Assembly (NCBI GenBank): GCA_977017645.1
Contig: OZ360227.1
Span: forward strand, 40,114,001-40,178,000
From: Torpedo marmorata
Lineage: Eukaryota
Reading direction: 5' to 3'
DNA length: 64,000 nt
The notes under the pieces were generated by a model. The model was not told the origin of the DNA and made no database searches. It saw nothing but the letters and a program-made list of their open reading frames with translations. Made by a program: the position numbers and the translations under genes. Numbering within the stretch: position 1 is the first letter of the stretch; every line of letters starts with the position of its first letter. This document shows positions 10,908-32,256 of the stretch, one piece after another.

Positions 10908-12209
10908 ATGTACTTCATATGTACAGTTTGTGTGTGTTGAGTCTGGCTGTGTATTTGCATGTTTTTGCACTGAGGACTGGAGAACGCTGTTTCGTCGTGT
11001 TGCATTTGTACAATCGGATGACAATAAACTTGAACTTGAAGAGGACTGGAAGGTTCAATACCAGAGAAGGAAGAACCAAAAAAGAGAGTTATTTGTGACT
11101 GTATTTAGCATTCTATGTTCTCAGATCTTACAATGAAAATCTGCTGACATTGTGAGTTGGCAGAAACAGCAGAAGAAGATTCTGGTCTATGAAAATGGGG
11201 AAAACAAATTTATGAATAATCACAAGTGCATTTTTGCTCAATCCGTCCTTCTGTTATCCCACCTTGCTTATCCAGGTGCTTTGACTCTTTGGGAGAAACT
11301 GCTGCAAAGGAGGAAATGATGTCTGCTCCCTTGACTTTAGTTCTGGCTAACCATTGCTATGCTTAATGTATTGCTTCTGTCTGAAGACTTTCATTTATGA
11401 AGACATTTTTTTGTTAGCATACATTAAACCATCAAGCCTCAATTTTTCCACCATACTTTGTAGCCAAGAGTGAACTAATTATCTCATTGCAACTTCAGGA
11501 CATGTTTGAATGATGAAACATGGGTTTAATTATTATAAAACATTTATGGATAACTGATGGTTTTGGGTTAATATTGTCATAAGATTTAATAACAATCAAA
11601 ATATTTTATTGCTGGCTAATGCTCCTGTTATTTAGCACTTACATTTTCTCAAAAATTAGTCTGTAACTTCTGTACCCATGTGATAAAGAGACAGATCTCT
11701 AATCACCAGTACACATTATGGCAGAAGGAAAACGGACCACGGTGTCTACAGATTTTCATGTTTTCCTTTTTTTCACATTATGGCAGACCTAGACCCACCA
11801 GTGTTGTATCCAAGTGTGATACCATGACAGATCAATACGATAACCTGGTGTTATACAGTGACAGATCTATGCTCATGACCTGTACCATAGAATTAAAATG
11901 ACAAACATGTACCTCCCAGTATTTCACTCTAATGCAATACTGCAGTTGATCTATTTGATACTTTATTGTTTTTTCAGAGGGCGTCAGCTTCAAGTAACTT
12001 TATCAGGCTTGTGTCTCAGTCCACATGGAGGAAGGAATTTGTGTGGTATCTTTTACGTTTCAGAATGCTTGAGCATTTTAGTGTTAATTATTTAGTTACC
12101 GTATATTTCGGCGTATAAGTCGACCGGCGGATAAGTCGACCCCCCTTTTTCAGCCTCATTTTAATGGTTTTATGGTATATCCGGCGTATAAGTCGACCCC
12201 AAAAATCTC

Positions 12210-12394
12210 GATGCCTGAGATGTTGCGCATTGACCGGCGTATAAGTCGACCCTCAAAAAACGCGATGATTGAGCTGCTGGGCGTTGACCGGCGTATAGGT
12301 CGACCCATAACGATCGCGATCATTGAGCTGCTGGGCGTTGACCGGCGTATAGGTCGACCCATAACGATCGCGATCATTGAGCTGCTGGGCGTTG
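12210..12394 (+). repeat. 54-bp tandem repeat (~3.4 copies) in pogo left subterminal region
   Basis: Unit GATCATTGAGCTGCTGGGCGTTGACCGGCGTATAGGTCGACCCATAACGATCGC, which contains the TIR core motif. Confidence 0.9.
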
Positions 12395-12413
12395 GCTGGA
12401 GGTGATTGTTATC

Positions 12414-13750
12414 ATGGAGGCTCCATTGAAGGCTCAATTGAAACGACGAAAGTATGAGGCGAGTTTTAAATTGAAAGTAATAGAAATGGCCAAGAAAACC
12501 AACAACTGTGCTGCTGCAAGAAAATTTGGTATATATGAGAAGTTGGTAAGAGATTGGAGGAAGAAAGAAGAGACTTTAAGAAAAATACCAAAAAGGCAAT
12601 GTTCCATGAGAAGAGGAATCACTCGTTGGCCAGAGTTGGAAAATCATGTAGCAGCATGGGTACGTGAACAGAGGCAAGATTGCTACATAGTCACCGAAAT
12701 AAAATAAGAACATTTGCACTGAACTGGGCAAAGTCGCACCCAGAACTCAGTAATGATTTTGAAGCTTCAGTAGGCTGGTGCAACCGTTTTATGAACAGGA
12801 AAAATCTGGTATTACGACAAAAAACTAAAATTGCTCAGAAACTACCAAAAGATCTTGATCATAAAGTTGTAAGTTTTCACCAGTTTATTTTACGTAACCG
12901 GAAGAAACACAAGTTTGCATTGGCAAATATTGGAAACATGGACGAAACCCCCATGAATTTTGACATGATAGGCAATAGAACAGTGGAATGGAAAGGTGTG
13001 AAAACTGTACAAACCAGGAGTACAGGACATGAAAGGACCAGGTTTACTGCGGTGTTATCGTGCATGGCCGACGGGACAAAGTTAAGACCCATGGTAATCT
13101 TCAAGCGCAAACTTAAACCTAAGATGAATTTCCCAGCAGGTATTTTTGTACATTTTCATGAAAAAGGATGGATGGATGAAAATGGTGTAAAACTATGGAT
13201 AGACAATGTGTGGAACAAGCGGCCAGGCGGTTTACGCAAGGAACGGAGTTTGCTGGTCTGGGATATGTTTCGTAGCCACTTAACTGAGAAGACTAAAAGT
13301 ACATTAGCACAACATAATACTCACATGGCGGTTATCCCGGGTGGTTTGACGTCTATATTGCAACCTCTCGATGTCTGCTTGAACAAGCCATTCAAAGACC
13401 ACGTGCGTGAAGAGTGGAATACATGGATGTCGAGTGCAGAAAAATCATTTACAAAAGGCGGGGCAATGCGTGCTGCATCGCTTGATGTGCTGTGTGACTT
13501 CGTGCTCAAGGCATGGGACAAAGTGAAAGTAGAGACTGTAATAAAATCGTTTAAAAAGTGCGGTATCTCTTGTGCAATTGATGGTACGGAAGATGATTTA
13601 TTGTGGGACACTGACGACGAAGCTGAAGCCGCCTCATCAGATACAGACTGGGACCCGTACGATGACTGTTTAAACAGTGAGACCCCGGATGTGCTTGCCG
13701 AGATCTTTGCCTCAGACGATGATAGCGAAAGTGATTTTGAAGGGTTCTAA
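12414..13750 (+). pseudogene. pogo transposase (Brinker-type DBD + CENP-B HTH + DDE_1) with a single frameshift near 12695
   Basis: RRKYEASFKLKVI..AAARKFGI.EKLVRDWRK, F.AS.GWCNRFMNR, NMDETP, LLVWDMF, LQPLDV. 35 residues counted between the 2nd and 3rd Asp. Acidic C-terminal tail. Confidence 0.92.
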
Positions 13751-15600: not shown

Positions 15601-16040
15601 AAGTATGTCACAGGGGGGAAAAAAAACTTTTATTCACAATCTGTAACCTGGATTATTATTGTTGAAATTCTGAATTAAAGTACATCTCTTTGAAGATAAT
15701 GACAATTGGTGATGGATAACTTCTCTAAATTGGAAAGTGGCATGTGAATGAATTTATTATGTGTGAAGGATAGAAGCTATTCTACAGTGGTATTGAGCTT
15801 GGTTACACAGCAGCTAGAGTACTGCATTTAGTTCTGTGTAGTGTACTTCAAAAGCATATACTGTATTGATCTTGGACAGGTTGAAAGGCAGTGATACTGA
15901 AGATAAAAGGTTAAAATTTCGCAAGCTAGTTTTTATTCCCTTGATTGTAGTAAGTAATGGGATGATTTTAAGTGAGGTATTCAAGATAATTAAAGGATTT
16001 GATAGGGTGGTTGCAAAGAAACTATTTTATCTTGTTGAGG

Positions 16041-16144
16041 GACAAAATGAAATTGCTGCATCATTGATCCAGCTACAATCTCTTTCTTGGGCAAAGAAGA
16101 AAGAGACGGTAGCTGGATTAATGATGCAGCAATTTCATTTTGTC
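16041..16144. repeat. 48-bp inverted repeat with 8-nt loop (3 mismatches)
   Basis: 16041-16088 versus the reverse complement of 16097-16144, compared base by base. Confidence 0.95.
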
Positions 16145-16255
16145 TTCCCATGGGTGATAGTACGTTGTTCTGTTCACCGCCTCTTGTAACAGGTAATGTA
16201 TCTGGAAACCTCACTGGTGTAGGTTATCTCGTATTTCTGATGCTTGACTCGAATG

Positions 16256-17055
16256 ATGATAGAGATGATGGCGGCGCTGCCGGAGCCACTGCAACGGTAG
16301 CGCTGCCGCTGGTGCGGACCCGCGAGGAGCGGAGATACAGCGCTCCCGCGGGGTCCAACCACTCAGTCGACTGCCGTCAGCTCCGCACGGGCTTTGAACG
16401 GCCCGTTAAAGGAGCCGACGGTAGTTTTTATTTAAAATTCTGCACCCAAGATGGCAGCGCCTCTGATCGGCAGCAGCCACGAGGGGTTGCAGACTCCAGG
16501 GGAGCGAAGGACTGGCGCAGGGCACCAGAAAACGGGGAGACCATCCCCCGTCTGAGAAGGAGAAGCAGAGGAGACGACCCACAGGACAGTGACCACGGCG
16601 GCGGAACGGTGAGGGGCTCTGCGGCTGAAAGACCAATGCATGCGGCGGGCTGCTGGCGACTCGAGGCGAGGAACCCGCGGAGGCTGTGGGCTGCTGTCGG
16701 GAGACTTGCACCGGGCTGCGGACTGCTGGAGACTGGCTCGAACTGGCTGAAGGGTAACCAGGTATCGGAACCGGGATGCGAGGGGGTTCCGAAGGCGCTG
16801 AAGGGTTCCTGATTCGTGTCGGAGGTTCGGATCTGGAGCTCGGGTTGCCAATGGTTTGGACTGGACTCTGTGTGGCTGCGGGAGCGCTGGAGGCGAATCT
16901 ACGGACACTGGGTGACTCTTTTGCTTCTCTTTCTCTGACTGTAAGAGGCGCTTCAGGCAATTTCTGCCGATGGCGAATCTGTCTGCCTTACAGCAGGCAA
17001 AAGGAATTTTGTGTAATATGACACTGTTTTATTGCATGACAATAAATTGAATCTT
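16256..17055 (+). mobile_element. GC-rich non-autonomous retroelement with Rex1-like 3' tail, inserted in BEL copy B gag
   Basis: Ends GAATTTTGTG...ATGACAATAAA-TTGAATCTTGAAT like the Rex1 tails in this window. Flanked by GAATG (16251-55, 17056-60). BEL gag is collinear on both sides. Confidence 0.7.
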
Positions 17056-17430
17056 GAATGCCAAGGGAGCTGCAGCGTTTGACTGAACCCAAGCCGCAGC
17101 TTTGTCTGTGGATGTTACCACTGGTACATGTGTGACTTGATAACACCATGCTCTGGGAGGATTTGTCCTTGTATATGCATGTCTTGTACCCATGGTTCTA
17201 AAATATCTACCTTTTCGGCTGGTTTCCTTTCCTGTGGCTCTTTTTTAAAAATATGACTTCTTATCATCATATACTTTAGATAATTTACTCTGAACACCAG
17301 ATACCATTGAGCCTTCTAGTACCTCCATTCTGGCCATGGTAATAGCAATGGTTGCTTCCAGCTCCTGCTGCTCCTTTCTCTGCCTTAGCTGCTCCTTCTG
17401 TTCTTCTAAAACATGTTAATCCTTAAGCGA

Positions 17431-18698
17431 TTTTTTTTTTTTTTTTTATTTTTATTTTTTTTTTAATTAAATATTTTATTTAAATTTTTAAATCACACAT
17501 TACATAAAATAACTTGCATATAATTCTTAAGAAATACATGTGATTACATTTTCTCCCCCCCTCATCCCACCCTCCCCTCCCTAACCCCTATACCCCCCTA
17601 ATCTAATTAAAATATAAAATAATAATAATAGTAAAGGAAAAAGAGAAAAAAGAAGATAGAAAAATAGAGCGAGGAGTCAATAAACTTAAAAGAAAGAAAA
17701 AACTAATATATCTTAGAGGTTGTTTCGCCGGTAGGTCTAATATCCAGAGAATTCACAATGTTAAACCCATAATCCTCGTATATGGGCCCCAAATTTTCAA
17801 AAAAGAATGATATTTATTTCGTAAATTATAAGTAATTTTTTCCAATGGTATACATGACCGTAACTCTGCATGCCATCGTTCTAAATTTAAATCAACATCC
17901 GATTTCCAAGTAATAGCTATACATTTTTTTGAAATTGCTAATATTATACGTAAAAATTCTACTTGATACATATTCAATTTATGTCTAATACTAAATTTTT
18001 TAATATCTCCAAATAAAAACAACATAGGATCCATTGCAATTTCAACATTAAAAATTCTTTCTAAAAAATTCTTAACTTTCAACCAAAAATCTTGAATCTT
18101 TGAACATAACCATGTACAATGTACAAAGGATCCTATTTCAGTTTTACATCTAAAACATGTATCTGATAACGCTGGGTTAAATTTCTTCAATTTTCTAGGT
18201 GTCAAATACAATTGATGAAAAAAATTATATTGTACTAATCTATATCTCACATTAATAACTTTTGTCATACTTAGTTTACATAAATCTTTCCAATGTTTCT
18301 CATCTATATTAACATTCAAATCTAATTCCCATTTCAGTCTAGACTTATGTTCTCCTACCTTAGACATCTTTCTTTGAAACAACTTATACATTTGTGATAT
18401 AAATTTATTAACATTAACTTTGGTAATTAATAACTCCAATTCACTTTGTCTTGATACTATTAATTCATTCCCTAATCTTCCAATCAAAAAAGCTCTAACT
18501 TGAAAATAAACTAACATTGTATTATCTAATATATTAAATTTTTCCTTTAACCTCTGAAAGGTAACAAATTTACCTGCTTCAAAACAATCTTTTAATGTCT
18601 TAACTCCCTTTAAAAACCATAACTTAAGTAATTGATTATCCATAGAAAATGGTAAAAGTGGATTCTGATATATTGGTGTATTTAAAGAAATTAATCGA
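17431..18698 (-). mobile_element. 5'-truncated L1-clade LINE (ORF2 C-terminus, 3'UTR, polyA) with target-site duplication
   Basis: ORF 17753-18643: LVQYNFFHQLYLTP..CFRCKTEIGSFVHCTWLC (CCHC knuckle)..LEKITY..FLKIW. PolyT at 17431-47. TTAAGCGA+T-run is duplicated at 17423 and 18699. Confidence 0.92.
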
Positions 18699-18704
18699 TT
18701 AAGC

Positions 18705-18759
<55 letters not shown>

Positions 18760-19820
18760 TCGTGCAAGAAGAGCGGCCATTTCAGCTTTAATCATTGAAC
18801 GTGTTGATGCAGAACTTGAAGTATGAAAAACTCTGGAGCTTAAACCAGAAGACCTTGTTTGCTTCTCTTGCTTTCAACATTTGACACACTGTCACTTGAT
18901 TGTATTTCGTCCTGCAGGTCAGATGTTGTCTTCTTACTTACCTCTTTCTCCAATTGGAATTGTACATCCTTTGCATCTTCATCCTCTTCATTTTCTTCAT
19001 CACCATTTGGTGACACATCTTCAGCCATTTCCACGTAGCTGTCTTCATGTTCAGTTGTTGTCTTCTGCAATGGTTTTGCAATGTTTTCATTCCCATCAAC
19101 CGAAGCCGTGGCTTCTTCCACTGTCAGCTTCAGTCTTGCAATGAGAACCTTTTTAACACCACTTGTATCTAGTTTCCGTCACCTCAATTCTTCTTTGAGA
19201 TGCACAACCTTCATGTCTTCAATACGTTGCTCCTTAACAGCAAAGTCAGCGGCAGCTGCGGCCATTTTACTCGTCTTGTTCCACCGTCCGTCGAGCATGC
19301 ACAACATAAGCCACCGAATTTCATGACTTGTTCATGACAGTAAATTCTGATTCTGAAATCAACAGTCCCCAATGGACTAGCGGCAGCAAAATCCAAACTG
19401 TGTTCAAACTTGTCACAAATACACAGGAGTCCACAGACGTAAGCCTACCGCTTCTGATGGCTGTAATGTGCTGTTATTAACAAACGAGTTTCCACGGCAG
19501 CATCGGTAAATAATATTGCTGATTTTCAAGAAATGGCTCAACCAACATGTTTATAGGACACTTTACTATAAGATTAGAAGCTATGAATCCCTCTCTGGCC
19601 TACTCATGGCAGATGGATGTGGATTACAAACTGCCCCTAACTCGAGGCATTTCCAAGATGGCCATCATATTAATTTCAATATCAATCCAAAGCACAGAGA
19701 GATTATTTTCTATCTTCTATCCTTCAATTTTCTGTTCCAAACAATAATTTTTCGTTGACTAATAAATAGTCACTTGGAGGCTAGGTGAGACACTTGTTCG
19801 TGACGCGTTTCAATTAATTT

Positions 19821-20226
19821 ACTCCGTGGATTGACACCTTGTCGTGGTGGAGAAGCTTGTGTGGTCCTGTGATCCCGAGAGTGATGCCGTCTGGAGCTAT
19901 GCTCCTGGTAGGGCCACCCATGGCGGTAAGGTCGAGGGTGAGGTCCCTGACAAAGAACAATCCAACCAAGTCCTCAATGATGGAACAGGTGGACGAAGTT
20001 ACTCTAAACTCAACGGCTGTGAAGGCGGATGAAGGCTGCAACAAATCCATCAGCTCCAATCGTCGTGGTTTTCATGCCATTGGAATTAGTTGGTTGATTT
20101 GTGAAGTATCGTGTGCTTCTTGGAGTGCAACATCAAGTACACATTAAACAAATACACGCACAGGCGTCTTCGCTCTGTGGATCAATGGAACGAAGGCCAT
20201 CATCCTCGACTACGAGGGATAGCCAA
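19821..20226 (+). mobile_element. RTE-clade-derived non-autonomous element (RTE 5'UTR + short 3' end) inside BEL LTR
   Basis: ACCTTGTCGTGGTGGAGAAGCTTG...GCTCCTGGTAGGGCCACCCATGGCGGTAAGGTC resembles the conserved Rex3/Expander/Bov-A 5' domain. The end CCATCATCCTCGACTACGAGGGATAGCC resembles an RTE 3' stem-loop. Confidence 0.65.
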
Positions 20227-20367
20227 GTCCAATAGGTTCAAAAGGTTTATTAACACATGATGACTTGTAGCAATCTACAATAACATAACGATCTTCTTTA
20301 AGTTCCATAAATAGCTTAACGTAACATAACGTCCGTAAAAACGATCCTCAATAATGAAATAGGAACG

Positions 20368-20437
20368 TGGCTCCCTGATGGGGGAATTGAACCCTGGTCT
20401 CCCACGTGATAGGCGGGGATACTAACCACTATACTAA
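20368..20437 (-). pseudogene. tRNA-Asp-derived sequence with encoded 3' CCA (anticodon mutated GTC>ATC), interrupted at its 5' end by a SINE
   Basis: rc reads TTAGTATAGTGGTTAGTATCCCCGCCTATCACGTGGGAGACCAGGGTTCAATTCCCCCATCAGGGAG-CCA, collinear with vertebrate tRNA-Asp(GUC). Confidence 0.88.
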
Positions 20438-20656
20438 TAGCCTGAACACAACTGGGATTGTCTGATTTCGGAAGCTAAGCAGGCACAGGACTGGTCAGTA
20501 CTTGGAGGGGAGACTGCCTAGGAACACCAGGTGCTGTACGTTTCTGTGAGGGGTGCTGGACAAAGTAGTGACTCTGCCTTACGATAGACAAAAATTAAAG
20601 AATTTCATGTGTGTTACATTCTAAATGTAGTATTACGTGACAATAATGGAACCTTT
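20438..20656 (+). mobile_element. 5S rRNA-derived SINE (SINE3-type), 13-bp TSD
   Basis: GTCTGATTTCGGAAGCTAAGCAGG..CTGGTCAGTACTTGGAGGGGAGACTGCCTAGGAACACCAGGTGCTGTA is 5S-like (A, IE, C boxes). Flanks are ACCACTATACTAA (20425-37) and ACCATTATACTAA (20657-69). Confidence 0.9.
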
Positions 20657-21494
20657 ACCATTATACTAACGCTCGCTATATACAATATACGAATGCACTG
20701 CGCATGCTCCAACTGGCACTCGCACATGCACACTACAACAAAGATGGCCTTCTAAACTCCGGGACGCCGACTAAACAAGGTAAGTAAACAAATTACACAT
20801 TTTGGCTCCTACACAGTGTCTGCAGACTTTTGTGTTTAACTCAGTTGGTATTCTAAAACAAGTGATGGTAACTACCACTAATAAGAGGTAATTGCAGAGA
20901 TGCTATCAGAACAACGATGAATCATTAAAAGGTAGGGTGGGAGTGGAATATGCAGATTTAATGATTGAAACTCAGAGGAAAGCTGTAGTTAATTGTTGAG
21001 TACTTCTTCTACCCCATTATGCAAATAAATGTTTCTTAACACTTCCTTCCCATCATCTAGACCCCCTTGTGTCCACTTGTCTATCCTCCCTGATCTTTCT
21101 CGTCCTCCCAAAATGGCTTTGCTTTAGTCTTGATTGGAGGAAAATGCAGACTCATCTTCCTTGTACTCTCGGAGAACTGAGCATCATGACTAATTTTTGC
21201 CTGCCTCTTGCCTCATTCTTTCAACCTCCCTTTTCTCCCCCACCCACCCCACCACTGCCTTGCAGCCATGTAATCTGCAAGGTGGTCTGGGGTGAACACC
21301 AAACTTTAGAACATAAGCAGGAATGGGAAATGTGTCTTAAACATGCTAAAACTGGAAACTATATTGATATAACTCTTGGTTAAAGTAGTTAAATACAAGT
21401 TTAACTATTATTGTGAAAACTACCTGAGCCAGAACTTGCCAAATAAAAAAAAAAATTAAAAAAAAGTTCTATTAATGTTCCAGTGAATGGCATT

Positions 21495-24557: not shown

Positions 24558-24817
24558 TGTAGGAGCCAAACGTGTGTTGTTTATAGCCGTTGGTTTGGCT
24601 GCAGGCGTCCCGGGGTCTGGAGACTGCGCGCTTTGTTTCTTATGGTGCGCACGCGGTATTCACTTGGGTGGTTGGCGCATGCGCGGTGGTTGAGTCGTTA
24701 GCCTGCGTGAACTGGTATGGCGGGATCTGGACTTCGCTATGAATTTGTTCTAATGCGTCACAGTTAAGAGCCTACTTAGCCTCCGAGCGGCCTTTTTTAT
24801 GGATAGTAGTCGCTACA
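24558..24817 (+). repeat. 5' LTR of BEL copy A (internally deleted relative to 3' LTR)
   Basis: TGTAGGAGCC...GTCGCTACA. Lacks ~130 bp present at ~32032-32165, including AATAAA. Confidence 0.9.
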
Positions 24818-25334
24818 TTTTAGTCAACAGAAATAGCCGCATCTACGACAGAACTGCATGGACGCCTTGAATCTGAGTTTTGGATTGAATGGACATTGTT
24901 GGAACATTTAGACTGTTTCCCCTCTTCGGTTTGGAGCGATACTGAAAGCAATATGGCGGCCATGTTGGAAATGCCGAGCACAGGCTGCTGACAGCAATCC
25001 GCCTCCATCGGTCTGAGCATCGGCCACAGAGGGGTCCAGGGCTTCTAACCCTAGAGCAGAATGTCCTATATATCATGCTGGTAGAGTCATTTGCCGAGAA
25101 TCACAGCGATATTATTGACTGCTGCTGCGGTGGAAACTCGCTCGTTGACAGCAGTGCATCACAGCCATCAGAAGCGGTAGGCTTACGTTTGTGGATTCCT
25201 TCTGTGTATTTGTTGCAAGTTTGAACACAGTTTGGATGTGCTGCCGCTTGTCCATTGGGGACTGTTGATTTTGGGCTTGTGTTGTGTGTGCTTGGTGCTC
25301 GAGCTCGGCGGACGGTTGGAGGGAAACGCGTAAA

Positions 25335-25898
25335 ATGGCTGGCGTCACCGCTGAGGTGCAATGTATCACAGACTTGCGGGTCGAAGATCTCAAATCAGAA
25401 CTGAAGCGGCGGAACCTAGATATAAGTGGTGTCAAAAGCATTCTCATTGCGAGGCTGAAACAGGCAATAGAAGAAGAGGTGGCTTTGGTTGATGGGAATG
25501 AAGACCCTGTAAAACCACTGCAGAAGACATCGACTGAATTTAAAGTCAGCAACTTGGAAATGGCTGAAGGTGTGTCACAAAATGGTGAAGAGGATGAAAA
25601 TGCAAAGGATGTGCAATTCAAACTGGAGGAAGAGTCAAATATTAAGGTAAAATCTGACATGCAGGATGAAATACAACCAGGTGACAGTGTGTCAAATGTT
25701 GGAATCAGGAGAAGCAAACAAAGTTCTTTTGGATCAAGCTCCAGAGTTTCCAGTACTACATCTGCACGTATAAAGGCTGAGGCTGAAATGGCTGCTCTTG
25801 TTGTACGACAAAAATTGCTTAAGGATAAATGTGCCTTGGAAGAACAGGAGGAGCAGCTAAGGAGGGAAAAGGAGCAGCTGCTACTATGGCCAAAGTGA
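25335..25898 (+). pseudogene. SAP-domain-Gag fusion N-terminus (SLTM/SAFB-like SAP + BEL Gag)
   Basis: [48 protein letters not shown] (SAP), an acidic linker, then the BEL gag signature [50 protein letters not shown]. Confidence 0.85.
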
Positions 25899-26280
25899 AG
25901 GTACTAGGAGCCTCAAAGGGATCAGGTGTTCGAAGTAATTTATCTGAAGTGTCTGATGGTATGAAGTCATATTTTGAGAAAGGACAACAGGAAAAGAAAA
26001 CACTTAATGTTCCTTTTGTACACAGTACAAGACATGCATACTCATGGACAAATCCTCCCAAAGCACGGTGTTACCAATCCAAAAACACCAATAATAACAA
26101 CCGCAGACAGAGCTGCAGCTCAAATCCAATCTCTCACCACAGCTCCCTTGACACTCCAGTCAAGCGTCAGAAATCCAGGTTAACATGCCATGGAAGATAT
26201 CAACTACATGCATGAGCTTGACATGCTTGCTAATATGCTAGTCATCATAAGGAAGTTGCCCTACTGGCTGAGGGATATAT

Positions 26281-28149
26281 GGTCAGGTCAAGTCACCTTT
26301 ATTTGTCGTTCATTACCATATACACAGTAAGACGAGATAGCGTTTCTCCAGGACCATGGGCAGATGTACATAAATATAATACAATAGAAAAACTATAACA
26401 TGCTAATACACATATATATCTAGGAATTGAGGAGCCTGATGGCTTGGGGGAAAAAACTGTTGCACAGTGTGGACGTACGAGCCCGAGTGCTTCGGTACCT
26501 CCTTCCAGATGGCAAAGGGGAAAACAGTTTACCAAAGGGGTGTGAGAAGTCCTTCACAATGTTTTTAGCCTTCCTCATGCATCGTGTGTTGTAGTTGTCA
26601 TGGTGGGGAGAGAGACTCCAATAATTTTCTACGCTGACCTCACTATCCTCTGCAGGGTCTTTCGGTCCGAGATGGTACAGTTACTAAACCAAGCGGTGAT
26701 GCAATTGCTCAGAATACTCTCAATACATCCCCTGTAGAATGTAGTAAGGATAGGGGGTGGGAGGTGAACTTTCCTCAGCCTTTGCAGGAAAGACGCTGCT
26801 GGGCTTTCTTGACTATGGAACTGGTGTTGAGGGACCAGCTGAGACTCTCCGCCAAGTGCACTCCAAGAAACTTGGTACTCTTTACGGCCTCAACGGTAGA
26901 GCCGTCAATGGAGAATGATCCCCCCGGGCCCTTCTGAAGTCGACAACCAACTCTTTTGTTTTGCTTACATTCGGATGCAGGTTGTTGGTTCCGCACCATT
27001 CCATTAGCGACTGCACCTCATCTCTGTATGCTGACTCATCGTTCTTACTGGTATGGCCCACCACGGTAGTATCATCAGCGAACTTTATGATGTGATTCGA
27101 GCTGTGTTTTGCTGCACAGTCATGAGTCAGCAGGGTGAACAGAAATGGACTAAGCACACAGCCCTGGGGAGCCCCCGTGCTCAATGTAATGACCTTGGAA
27201 GTGCTGTTTCCAATCCGGACTGCCTGAGGTCTTCCCGTCAGGAAGTCTAGGATCCAATTACAGAGGGTGTAGTTTAGGCCCAGCCCCCTCAACTTCCCTA
27301 TCAGGTACTGAGGTATGATCGTGTTGAATGCCGAGCTGAAGTCAATAAACAGCATTCGAACATACGCGTCCTTATTTTCCAGGTGGGTGAGGGCTAGGTG
27401 GAGGGTGGTAATGGCATCATCTGTGGAGCGGTTTGATCGATATGCGAACTGCAGGGGGTCCAGTGAGGGGGGCAGCAGAAGCTTGATGTGCCTCATGACG
27501 AGCCTCTCGAAGCACTTCATGACGGTAGATGTGAGTGCAACAGGGCGGTAGTCATTGAGGCAGGACACTGTCGACTTCTTCGGCACGGGGATGATGGTAG
27601 CGGCTTTGAAGCACGTTGGAACCACGGCACTGCTCAGGGAGATGATAAAGACGTCAGTGAGAACATCAGCCAGCTGGGCCGCACATCCCCTGAGCACTCT
27701 GCCGGGAATGGTATCTGGCCCAGCAGCTTTCCGTGGGTTAATCTTGCTTAACACTCTCCTCACGTTGGCCACTGTGAAACACAGCATCTGATCATTTGGA
27801 GGAGGGGTTGTCTTCTTTGCCACTACATCATTTTTCGCCTCAAAACGCGCATAGAAGTTGTTCAGTGGATCTGGGAGGGAGGCATCACCAGCACAGTCAG
27901 ATGGTGTTGTCTTGTGGTTAGTGATATCTTGAATGCCCTTCCACATGCATCGCGTGTCCTTGCTGTCCTGAAAGTGACTCTGAATTCGCTGGGCATGTGC
28001 ACGCTTTGCCTCCCTGATGGCCTTAGACAGCTTGGCTCTTGCGATAGCTAGGGTTACCTTGTCGCCCGCACTGAAGGCAGAGTTTCGGCTCCTCATCAGT
28101 ACACGCAACTCCGCAGTCATCCATGGCTTCTGATTAGAGCGAGTAATTA
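26281..28149 (-). mobile_element. Rex1/Babar LINE, 5'-truncated, inserted in BEL gag
   Basis: [83 protein letters not shown]. Gag is collinear across it (KLPYWLRDIW | TVACDF). Confidence 0.93.
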
Positions 28150-28150
28150 G

Positions 28151-28258
28151 ACTGTGGCCTGTGATTTCCGGGAAAAACACAATCAAAGAGCTACCTTTAA
28201 GGATATGGTGGATTTCCTTGAAAGGCAAGTGAAGATTGCAACAGATCCAGTATTTGGA
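28151..28258 (+). pseudogene. BEL gag remnant between Rex1 and L1 inserts
   Basis: Translates [36 protein letters not shown], a typical BEL gag segment. Confidence 0.85.
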
Positions 28259-30654
28259 TTTATAAATAACTTCTTCCTTCAAATCCTCTCCTATATTATT
28301 TAATTCTATTCGGATCCACGCCGAATCTTTTGTTAAATCGAACAATTCATTAATAAACCATAATTGGGCTGCTTTATAATAATTTTGGAAATTAGGCAGT
28401 TGTAATCCACCCAATTCATAATTCCAAGTTAATTTTTCCATAGCTACTCTAGCCAATTTACCTTTCCACAAAAACTTCCTAATAATAAAATTTAAATCTT
28501 TAAAAAATTTTTGAGGAATTTCATATGGAATTGATTGAAAAAGATATTGAATCCTTGGAAAGATATTCATTTTAATACAATTTACCCTTCCTAATAAAGT
28601 TATAGGTAAATCCTTCCAACTTTCCAAATCTTTCTTAATTTTCGCAAATAATGGTAAATAATTTAATTTATACAAATTGGCTAGTTTAGTATCTATCTTT
28701 ATACCTAAATATTTAATTCCTTCGTTTGACCATTTAAATTGTGTAATTTCTTTACATTTACTATAATCGCCTTGTGTTAATGCCATAATTTCACTTTTAT
28801 CAGAATTGATTTTATAACCAGAAATCTCCCCATATTCCCTCAATATAACATCCAAATGTATTAAAGAAGTAATAGGTTTTGTCATATATATCAATACATC
28901 ATCTGCAAATAAATTAATCTTATGTTCTTCATTTCCAACTTTAATACCCGCAATCTTAATATCTTGTCTAATTAGTTCCGCCAAAGGTTCAATTGCTAAA
29001 ACAAATAATGCGGGTGATAACGGACATCCTTGTCGTGTCGACCTAGTCAACAAAAACTTTGAAGAAATTTGTCCATTTGTAACCACCCTAGCAGAGGGTT
29101 CCTTATATATAGTTTTAATCCAATTAATAAATGTAATTCCAAAACCAAATTTTTCCAATACTTTAAATAAATAATTCCACTCTAATCTGTCAAAAGCCTT
29201 TTCAGCATCTAGTGTTAATACTAATGATAATTCCTCTTTCTTTTGTGCCACATTAATTAAACTGATTAACTATATTATCCTTTGAATATCTATTCTTAAT
29301 AAAACCTGCTTGATCTTCATGAATTAAATCTGGCAAATATTTAGCAAGTCTATTTGCTAATATTTTCGCCATTATCTTATAATCCACATTTAACAATGAA
29401 ATTGGTCTATATGATTCTGTTTTCAACGGATCTCTATCTTTTTTTGGTATAACTGTTATTATTGCATTAGAAAATGTTTTCGGTAAAGAATGAGTTTCCG
29501 TTATTTGTTTTAATACCTCCATATATGGGGGTATCAATAGATCTTTAAATTCCTTATAAAATTCTGGTGGGAAACCATCCTCACCTGGAGATTTCCCATT
29601 TGCTAAAGAACTAAGAACCTCATTAACTTCTCTCATCGTAAATGTTGAATCTAAAAATTCCTTACTTCGAGTATTCAATCTAGGCAATTTAATCTTAGAT
29701 AAAAAAGCATTCACTTTAAAATCATCTTTATCAGTTTGAGATTTATATAAATTTAAATAAAATTCCCTAAAAGAATCATTTATTTCCCAAGGTTTAAACG
29801 TTATTTTCTTTGAATTCTTTTTTACAGCATTTATAGTTCTAGAAGCTTGTTCTTTTTTTAATTGCCATGCCAATACTTTATGTGCTCTTTCACCCAATTC
29901 ATAATATCTTTGTTTAGTTCTTTCAATTACTTTTTCCATTTTATATGATTGCAATGTATTATAATACAATTTCTTTCCAATTAAATTCCTCTTTTTTTCC
30001 TCTGATTTTCTCTTTTGTAAATCTTTCTCCAAAAATTCAATCTCCTTCTCCAATTTATCTAATTCTTGAGTATATTCCTTTTTAACCTTTGCTGAATAAC
30101 TTATTATTTGACCTCTTAAATAAGCTTTTAAAGTATCCCAGATAATAAATTTATTATCCATTGAATTAGAATTAATCTGTAAAAATTCATGAATTTCTCT
30201 TCTTATATAGTTACAAAAATCTGGTCTTTTCAATAAAGAAGAATTAAATCTCCATCTATATGTCATTTTCTCTTTTTCCGGAATTATACATGACATTATT
30301 AAAGGCGAATGGTCAGAAATTATTCTTGCTTTATATTGTATTTCAGTAACTCTATCTTGTAAATGAGATGACAATAAAAACATATCTATTCTAGAATAAG
30401 AATCGTGTCTAAAAGAATAAAAGGAATAGTCTTTTTCTCTTGGATTCAACTTTCTCCAAATATCAACTAAATTCAAGTCCTTCATCAAAGAAAGAATTTT
30501 CTTTGCAGTTTTGGTTCTAACTATTGATTTGGATGTTTTATCTGGTATTGGATCTAAACAACAATTAAAGTCCCCCCCAATTAAAATATTCTCATTTGCT
30601 TCTGATAAATGCAGAAAAGAATCTTGAATAAATTGTTCATCTTGCGTATTTGGG
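28259..30654 (-). mobile_element. Internal L1-clade ORF2 fragment (endonuclease C-half to RT thumb), no 3' end/polyA
   Basis: [71 protein letters not shown]. One frameshift at ~29260. Confidence 0.93.
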
Positions 30655-30736
30655 ACACTGACGACGAAGCTGAAGCCGCCTCATCAGATACAGACTGGGA
30701 CCCGTACGATGACTGTTTAAACAGTGAGACCCCGGA
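30651..30736 (+). repeat. Exact 86-bp copy of pogo transposase sequence 13604-13689
   Basis: TGGGACACTGACGACGAAGC...GAGACCCCGGA is identical at both sites. Confidence 0.97.
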
Positions 30737-31591
30737 GTGAAGCATGGAAGGAGTGTTGTGAAGCGCTATAGTGTTATTTTCGCATGTTTAGCTGTGAGCA
30801 ATTCACATCGAAGTGGCATCATCACTTGACACAGACTCTTTCATCAATGCCCTTTGACGTTTTACAGCCAGACGTGGTCAAGTGAAGGAACTACGATCTG
30901 ACAATGGCACTGATTTTGTGGGAGCTCAGCGCGAGTTGAGGGAGGCAATTGAAAGCTGGAATCAGGGTCAAATCCATAATACACTGCTCCAGAAAGGAAT
31001 CAATTGGATCTTCCATCCCCCTGCTGGCTCACACCATGGAGGTTTATGGGAAAGATTAATTAGATCAGTGCGAAAGGTTCTCAATTCCACCCTAAATGTG
31101 CAGTCTTGACGAGGAGGGTCTCCACACAGTTTTATGTGAAGCTGAGGCTATCCTCAACAGTCGTCCAATCACCAAGGCTTCTACAGATCCAAATGACCTT
31201 GAAGCACTTACCCCCGAACCACCTTCTGCTCTTTAAGACTATGCCATCAATGCCACCAGGGCAGTTTCAGAAGGAAGACATGTATGCTCGTCGCAGGTGG
31301 AGGCAAGTTCAGTATATGTCGGACTTGTTCTGGAAAAGATGGATTAAAGAATATTTTCCCCAACTGCAGGAACGACAGAAATGGTCCAACATCAGATGCA
31401 ACTTCACACCAGGGGACATCGTGATCATCATGGATGATTCAGCGCCTCGAAACTCCTGGCCACCTGGAAAAATTGTTGAGACCATTCTGGACAAAAAGGG
31501 ACTTGTACATGTCCAGATCAAGACCAAAACCGGCTTTCTGGACAGACCCATCAACAAAGTCTGCCTTCTACAGGAGTCAGAGGAACTTTGA
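30737..31591 (+). pseudogene. BEL/Pao integrase and C-terminal DUF5641-like region
   Basis: [82 protein letters not shown]. Confidence 0.92.
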
Positions 31592-31839
31592 CAAGCCCAA
31601 AACGGACTTTATTTTGTTGTTTTTTGGACCTTGCCCCTTGCCCACTACACAGACTACAGACTTTACTGGTCCAGAGTGGTGGTAAAGATCACTCTTTTTC
31701 AAGACTATGTGCTAGTAACCTCTGGCCTTATGAAGAATGAAGAAAGAAGATCTACACATAATATTGGAATATACTGTGTGTGATTGTTATTTATAATTGT
31801 GTAATTATTATTTGAGACATAATACTTAGGGGCCAGTAT

Positions 31840-32256
31840 TGTTGGAGCCAAACGTGTGTTGTTTATAGCCATTGGTTTGGCTGCGGGCGTCGGCAGCGTC
31901 TCGGGGTCTGGAGGCTGCGCGCGTTCTGTTTCTTCTGGTGCGCACGCGCTATTCACTTGGATGGTTGGTGCATGCGCGGGGGTTTTGCGGGGGTTTGAGA
32001 GTCGTTAGCCCGCGTGAACTTGTATGGCGGGATAGAGACGAGGAGGGTGAGTAGGGCTCCGATATTTTCTGTTGACTGTTACTACAGTCGTTATGACATA
32101 CGATAGACGTTACCATGAACGTTACAAGTCCTTTTGTGTTCATTAATAAACAGTTTAAAAACGCATCTGGGCTTCGCTATGAATTTGTTCTAACGCGTCA
32201 CAGTTAAGAGCCTACTTAGCCTCCGAGCGGATTTTTTATGGATAGTAGTCGCTACA
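31840..32256 (+). repeat. 3' LTR of BEL copy A
   Basis: TGTTGGAGCC...GTCGCTACA, preceded by purine-rich AGGGGCCAG; contains AATAAA. Confidence 0.92.

Follow-up and report, generated by a model that had tools for sequence, protein, structure and literature searches.

In Torpedo marmorata, a 64,000-nt stretch of contig OZ360227.1 (assembly GCA_977017645.1, positions 40,114,001 to 40,178,000, forward strand; here called the window) contains a BEL/Pao retrotransposon whose first ORF opens with a SAP domain resembling that of the host protein SLTM. This locus raises the question of where the domain came from, whether the element has kept it, and what it might do at the head of Gag.

The window element and the donor of its SAP domain

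The ORF at 25335-25898 (+) encodes 187 aa, and its translated N-terminus is the one given in the first-pass annotation. Pfam SAP (PF02037) was found at residues 11-46 (E 1.4e-10, 41 bits versus a cut-off of 23.9). The ORF starts approximately 520 nt inside the 5' LTR of an element spanning 24558-32256, and the LTR pair (24558-24817 and 31840-32256), which starts with TG, is identical at 243 of 259 aligned nucleotides. Translation, Pfam match and LTR pair together confirm the description of a first ORF with a SAP-bearing N-terminus inside LTRs. The parts of the element and a second copy in the window are listed here.

16005..20813 (-): second copy, diverged type C, fragmented, with a broken LTR, its ATG at 19265 and its SAP, with a stop, at 19223-19110
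24558..24817 (+): 5' LTR, sitting in a CR1-like LINE remnant and showing an internal deletion when compared with its 3' partner
24818..25296 (+): element leader, non-host as far as tested
25297..25334 (+): captured SLTM 5'UTR, 38 nt, by match to host SLTM
25335..25463 (+): captured coding part of SLTM exon 1; the host ATG is the Gag start, and the SAP runs from 25365
25464..25479 (+): start of SLTM exon 2 (16 nt), joined to exon 1 with no intron between
25480..26282 (+): remaining 5' part of gag (acidic linker, serine-rich motif, BEL Gag coiled coil), by matches to P0156 (tblastn) and to copy L044 (blastn)
26283..28150 (-): inserted LINE fragment with reverse transcriptase (RVT_1), a gap in the L044 match
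28151..28270 (+): short gag remnant between both LINE insertions, by match to L044
28271..30733 (-): inserted L1-like LINE with endonuclease and RT (Exo_endo_phos_2, RVT_1)
30734..31588 (+): C-terminal part of the integrase with DUF5641, 82-92% at the amino acid level to P0156
31840..32256 (+): 3' LTR, by LTR pairing

The window copy is dead: it carries two LINE insertions, and most of pol is gone. Its target-site duplication is degraded (three of five positions alike), and two lesions, a frameshift near 25880 and an internal deletion at about 26200, disrupt the 5' part of gag at 25480-26282. A frameshift terminates the 187-aa ORF, and Gag itself extends beyond it. The captured piece is followed by the acidic linker, the serine-rich motif and the coiled coil of BEL Gag, but the 187-aa ORF contains no Pfam Gag family, DUF1759 being present only in less broken copies. 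A second copy of the same architecture had been proposed on the minus strand from 19265. It exists and bears a SAP (24/38 residues and 85/114 nt shared with host SLTM), but it belongs to a diverged type with a stop inside that domain, and an L1 3' end is inserted at about 17440-18753. A tRNA-like sequence was spotted by eye at 20370-20435 (-), within the broken LTR of this copy. Elsewhere in the window, a Pogo/Tigger-like DNA transposase remnant (DDE_1, HTH_Tnp_Tc5) lies at 12381-13750, behind a 54-nt tandem repeat at 12205-12399.

The host SLTM is a complete gene on contig G000:C68, with its exons in order. Among the protein matches to residues 1-110 of the window ORF, the best named ones were SLTMs of rays, Narcine first, and the best 120 of 513 were all SLTM-type. 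The first-pass annotation had given an SLTM segment differing at 5 of 38 positions, which agrees with chimpanzee SLTM (P0011); from the genome's own SLTM, the window SAP differs at 3/38 residues and 6/114 nt. The match of 25297-25479 to this gene comprises the exon-1 piece, including 38 nt of 5'UTR and the ATG (153/167 nt). After exon 1, the window copy follows exon 2 (16/16 nt) rather than the intron (6/16), and then the match ends. The first 15 nt of exon 2 are matched in full by 28/38 host-like copies, and upstream of 25297 identity to host SLTM is at chance level from 2 nt on (73 copies). The spliced exon 1-exon 2 join, the 5'UTR and the ATG show that the 5' end of a spliced SLTM mRNA was captured, and that its ATG now starts Gag. 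The proposal that the 5' part of host SLTM mRNA was captured was thus upheld.

The 33 SAP codons of the window agree with SLTM at 93/99 nt and with the genome's SAFB at 61/99. At the 16 codons that separate SLTM from SAFB synonymously, the copies (types are given below) have the SLTM codon at 13.0 (type A) and 4.2 (type D) and the SAFB codon at 0.9 to 0. A second donation from SAFB, as the source of SAFB-like residues in types B-D, was ruled out by the absence of SAFB codons. The Gag of this element is headed by the spliced 5' end of the mRNA of SLTM, not of SAFB. None of 11 other SLTM exon stretches matched copies L044 and L109, and profile scans of family copies found no RRM. The SAP is common to the element and the SAFB family (SAFB1, SAFB2, SLTM), but the layout of that family (SAP, RRM and ER-rich C terminus) was not seen in the element, which has neither RRM nor ER-rich region.

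Capture of spliced mRNAs by LTR elements via template switching is known, BEL/Pao included (PMC5131818). By analogy, one template switch onto a co-packaged SLTM mRNA likely put 5'UTR, ATG and SAP into gag. The LTR-mediated retrocopies presented there (fly, mosquito BEL18, zebrafish; maize Bs1) likewise have a spliced partial mRNA that replaces an internal ORF part between LTRs and is re-amplified. Indeed, an intron-less host piece in place of an internal ORF part between LTRs, re-amplified, is what we found. Unlike in those retrocopies, however, the piece here forms an in-frame N-terminus, the family is very large, pol was kept at first, and the piece stayed constrained. A literature search, with Repbase, Dfam and most subscription papers outside it, yielded no paper on a SAP in BEL Gag or on SLTM capture.

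The family and its BEL/Pao relatives

A SAP query returned at least 150 matches in the genome, from which 50 loci were taken; a Gag-core query also returned at least 150, from which 90 were taken (the top 30 plus 60 hand-picked favouring long frames). By their N-terminus, 114 distinct copies could be typed, and five more were not typeable. The types are host-like A (39 copies), SAP-deleted (31), and the diverged types B (18), C (14), D (6), E (4) and F (2). The SAP is a family trait rather than a one-off, as had been supposed. Over the 114-nt SAP piece, identity to the host has medians of 93, 85, 75, 69, 68 and 62% from A to F (75 of 85 copies, indel-free).

In a Gag-protease tree (43 of 85 rows), the family forms one clade versus six SAP-less outgroups (100/99). 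Types A and B, together with the copies that lack the SAP, make up its unresolved base, from which C-F are derived (97/97). The DNA tree built from the 114 typed copies agrees with it. Gag identity to the outgroup drops from A to D (68, 64, 57, 55%), and the median LTR mismatch, based on few pairs each, is 8.0% for SAP-less copies, 6.3% for A, 5.9% for B, 4.85% for C and 2.2% for D. A single capture at the base of the family, followed by divergence, fits these sequence relationships best. Contigs of four other organisms cover a type D stretch (30, 25, 30 and 30 of 30 bins), one of them, 218 nt long, spanning the SAP with three differences, which indicates that the family is common to relatives.

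In RT-RNaseH, the family has 83-85% aa identity to P0156 (the highest value among the best 120 relatives is 84%), and the named relatives are from teleosts. DUF1759, protease, RT, Peptidase_A17 (RNase H), integrase and DUF5641 are present across copies L032, L033 and L044, in the order read along P0156. Clean 5-bp target-site duplications were seen in L032, L102 and L120, among nine copies inspected. All of these features are shared with fish BEL/Pao elements (Belpaoviridae; P0156, P0163 Pimephales promelas), but the fish elements have an N-terminal helical domain of their own, where the family has the host start codon and the SAP, and later branches of the family lose pol. The relatives have a single gag-pol frame of about 2000 aa; none such was found among the ORFs of the first 20 long family stretches.

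The 14 N-termini of relatives that we inspected have in common this helical domain of about 110 aa, which the family lacks, and PF02037 is listed in none of the best 120 RT-RNaseH relatives. The comparison shows that the SAP piece replaces the ancestral N-terminal helical domain of the SAP-less relatives. Two N-terminal protein queries found no pre-capture parent in the genome, which does not establish its absence. The idea that the acidic linker descends from the ancestral helical domain was rejected, as the trace is weak (17 residues; 12/500 shuffles score as high). Horizontal transfer into rays is a possibility, given that P0156, at 83-85% identity, stands among BELs that are otherwise of teleost type and that the genome yielded no pre-capture form. 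Gypsy-type elements (gag-asp_proteas, rve, RT_RNaseH) are nested in family copies L042 and L050.

A structural model of residues 1-690 of a type D Gag predicts a confident SAP (pLDDT 92-96; helices at 40-49 and from 58), a disordered linker, a long helix and a putatively capsid-like domain. The best Foldseek rows for this Gag were PNMA2, MLV, Arc and Copia capsids, all weak (best E 5.6e-3).

An N-terminal SAP-like match was also found in 10 of 270 Gag-Pol relatives scanned (P0419, P0399, P0395, P0349, P0382, P0428, P0343, P0409, P0400 and P0356), seven of them above the Pfam cut-off. These distant BEL SAPs share 12-19 of 38 residues with SLTM, and the elements group apart from the family, with the AU test rejecting one clade (p = 7.5e-8; 41 rows). 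A SAP-headed Gag is therefore not unique to this family; it is convergent, distant BEL Gags having gained the domain independently. In several of these, the SAP is continued by an acidic-Gly-Asp-Pro motif resembling the one that follows the SAP of SAFB/SLTM, so that an older capture may be their origin.

The occurrence of N-terminal SAPs in distant BEL Gags could suggest that the family's SAP is an old transposon-borne domain merely like SLTM, or a late overwrite by recombination with host mRNA. We consider this hardly credible. The distant SAPs belong to another clade, the nearest relatives have no SAP, and the diverged types retain SLTM codons, UTR remnants and the exon-2 piece. The host-like types, moreover, are basal within the family. 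These observations largely refute an old transposon-borne SAP. The domain is also known from Zisupton DNA transposons and the Physarum Chlamys Penelope-like element (PMC8557442). There and in distant BEL Gags such as P0349, P0356 and P0409 it is an accessory domain, as here, and in the distant BELs it occupies the same N-terminal place in Gag. In those systems, however, the donor gene is not traceable, whereas in this family the donor, the junctions and the later divergence are all legible.

Constraint on the SAP and its possible role

The SAP had been described as retained by the element. Indeed, dN/dS between host and copy is 0.19-0.49 (14 pairs), while private changes are near a ratio of 1 (53 synonymous changes on 28.7 sites and 154 nonsynonymous ones on 85.3; for D, Fisher p = 0.03). 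All eight scanned copies of types B-F are still above the Pfam cut-off for SAP. When core columns are defined by their conservation in ten unrelated BEL SAPs, types D, E and F keep them in 31/39 cells versus 22/60 elsewhere (p = 3e-5), the lineages being not fully independent and the test for D alone not significant (p = 0.28). Spacing aligns one lysine with SAFB2 K53; it is kept in 73/75 copies, but the single type F copy scored has lost it. The UTR piece decays faster than the domain, as the exon-1 match of several C and D copies starts only inside the SAP. The SAP is carried by 20/20 young long-frame copies, which were picked for long frames.

Other measures point to weaker constraint. In pairs of A versus D, dN is as high in the SAP (0.27-0.34) as in the free-running linker (0.30-0.35), and the low dN/dS of these pairs is due to a saturated dS (1.8-2.6). 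For A versus C the ratio is 0.61, and for A versus E/F 0.43-0.67. Furthermore, 31 of 81 copies chosen by Gag core have lost the SAP through an in-frame 147-nt deletion, with an identical junction in 30/31. This subfamily retains UTR, ATG and alanine run; its copies have spread, some with RT and integrase, indicating that the SAP is not needed in cis. LTRs less than 5% apart were found in 0/9 SAP-less and 11/29 SAP copies (p = 0.04); copy L140 was left out of this comparison, as its value of 22% stems from another repeat. The SAP is thus constrained yet dispensable. Retention stands as far as host-copy dN/dS, core columns and Pfam matches are concerned, but it is qualified by the spread of the deletion branch and by a low ratio that is partly due to high dS.

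What the domain may do can be judged from its homologue in SAFB2, which binds dsDNA only and does so weakly, with a slight preference for AT and a need for K53/S54; RNA is not bound (PMC9958909). By this homology, the SAP of the element would bind dsDNA. Complexes containing the capsid are tethered to chromatin by p12 in MLV and by Gag in foamy virus (PMC6021111), and in like manner the SAP would keep Gag particles attached to chromatin or to their own cDNA. A single SAP binds weakly; a Gag shell would show many. We slightly favour this role of the SAP, an accessory dsDNA or chromatin grip on Gag that would be helpful but dispensable. The likeness to the viral modules is one of working only, both being Gag-borne and potentially able to tether a capsid-containing complex. 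MLV p12 and the foamy virus sequence are short nucleosome-binding peptides, p12 being essential (PMC6021111), whereas the module here is a folded host-derived domain, predicted to bind dsDNA and dispensable.

The more specific idea of a tether to S/MAR chromatin fared less well. AT content in 300-nt flanks, the only size analysed (82 of 114 copies), was 60.0% for SAP copies (n = 55), 58.6% for SAP-less copies (n = 27; p = 0.66) and 59.5% for the background (p = 0.87), although help in trans could mask a preference. An AT-rich insertion preference was thus not seen. With the flanks not AT-rich and the SAP-less subfamily spread, S/MAR targeting recedes, but a dsDNA or chromatin tether is still the best reading.

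The same results bear on an explanation that we regard as unlikely, though it is the main rival: the useful catch was the host 5'UTR with its start codon for Gag translation, and the SAP is a harmless passenger, constrained to stay folded. The wide spread of the subfamily that keeps UTR, ATG and alanine run after losing the SAP would fit, as would a SAP dN not below that of the linker and the lack of AT-rich targeting. However, a passenger would not readily account for the near-complete conservation of a surface lysine predicted to contact DNA (from SAFB2 K53 spacing), for the youngest copies keeping the SAP while SAP-less ones look older, for the independent gain of SAPs by other BEL Gags, or for a UTR piece that decays faster than the domain.

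It is also conceivable, if improbable, that the SAP brings new Gag to chromatin or the nuclear scaffold to collect its own nascent RNA, and so serves packaging rather than integration; this would also expose Gag to host nuclear RNAs. The most recent branches, which lack RT and integrase, keep open SAP-Gag-protease frames of 1223-1336 aa, which fits a Gag acting on its own RNA, and a second host RNA was captured later than the SAP (see below). Nuclear Gag stages are reportedly known for other retroelements. Yet both captured RNAs are spliced, so that an encounter in the cytoplasm is possible, and the SAP of SAFB2 does not bind RNA (PMC9958909).

Finally, the SAP had been suggested to be a decoy that competes with SAFB/SLTM and lifts transposon repression. 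SAFB1, SAFB2 and SLTM do repress L1, and their knock-down raises LTR/ERV RNA in mouse cells (PMC10901741). This repression acts on RNA, however, and the ER-rich C terminus, not the SAP, was the sole deletion wholly failing rescue in that study, which weakens the idea. Moreover, no match to other SLTM exon stretches was found in the two copies tested, and the SAP has drifted from the host towards a generic SAP (93% to 62% over the 114 nt), which is unexpected of a decoy. We therefore regard it as very improbable, and return to an accessory grip on DNA as the preferred role.

A MIPOL1-like tail in later branches

In long stretches, a tail follows the protease in types B (12/17), C (7/14), D (6/6) and F (1/2) and in SAP-less copies (1/21), but not in A (0/15) or E (0/4); it is absent from both window copies. 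In most copies having one, it stands in place of RT and integrase. Atlas calls the tail MIPOL1-like (0.92-0.93), which we took as a lead. A splice-donor pattern had one match in the genome, 125 kb from a FOXA gene, and a second such pattern had none. FOXA1 adjoins MIPOL1, and we take this FOXA gene to be FOXA1. Six host exons with canonical splice sites were found at G000:C40:64385712-64591881 (-); type B tails contain counterparts of the five longer ones at 90-98% and of the sixth over its first 18 nt. Examples of tails are L102 4250-5380, L157 4800-5400 and that of L046. In the L046 tail, the first 180 aa and the last 70 aa lie outside the mapped exons and could be additional pieces of host origin; the first part is likewise MIPOL1-like according to Atlas.

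The host order of the exons is U1-U2-U3 ... M1-M2-M3, and that of the element M1(part)-M2-M3-U1-U2-U3(18 nt). The M3 donor is joined to the U1 acceptor, 206 kb upstream, in all 14 copies that keep the left side (25 examined). This join has the form of a back-splice junction, from which we infer a circular RNA as the probable origin. Trans-splicing or an unseen duplication remain as alternative sources of the permutation; no genomic duplicate of the upstream MIPOL1-like exon was found within 200 kb past the last captured exon (best 28/40, inside a family copy). A junction of this back-splice type also sets the second capture apart from the LTR-mediated retrocopies of PMC5131818.

The D branch with the tail has at least 150 matches at 96-100% identity, many in frames of more than 1200 aa, and its LTR pieces are 99.6-100% alike in the six of 20 copies where they were measurable. 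This very young and abundant branch (L167-L186) is non-autonomous, with a SAP-Gag-protease-coiled coil frame of 1223-1336 aa and neither RT nor integrase. Several of its copies lie within 400 kb around the MIPOL1-like gene itself, and a tandem array with six matches at a spacing of 5233 nt is found at G000:C30:34887839-34914453.

Taken as a whole, the element may have been rebuilt twice from host RNAs, a reading that we put forward tentatively. The SAP and start codon of SLTM would first have tethered Gag to DNA, convergently with other BELs; pol would then have been swapped for a coiled coil from a MIPOL1 circular RNA, across its back-splice junction, giving rise to the youngest and perhaps largest branch, with both host pieces working for the element.

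Many mobile elements bear accessory chromatin-binding domains, yet it is hardly ever possible to trace the donor. In this case a single genome offers the donor gene, the two junctions, the replaced ancestral domain, a natural deletion control and a graded set of descendants, which makes the benefit of a captured host domain directly testable. That SAPs were gained independently in the Gags of other BELs suggests that the need recurs. If the second capture stems from a circular RNA, its exon order would be the fossil trace of a circRNA having been reverse-transcribed by an LTR element, which went on to multiply greatly.
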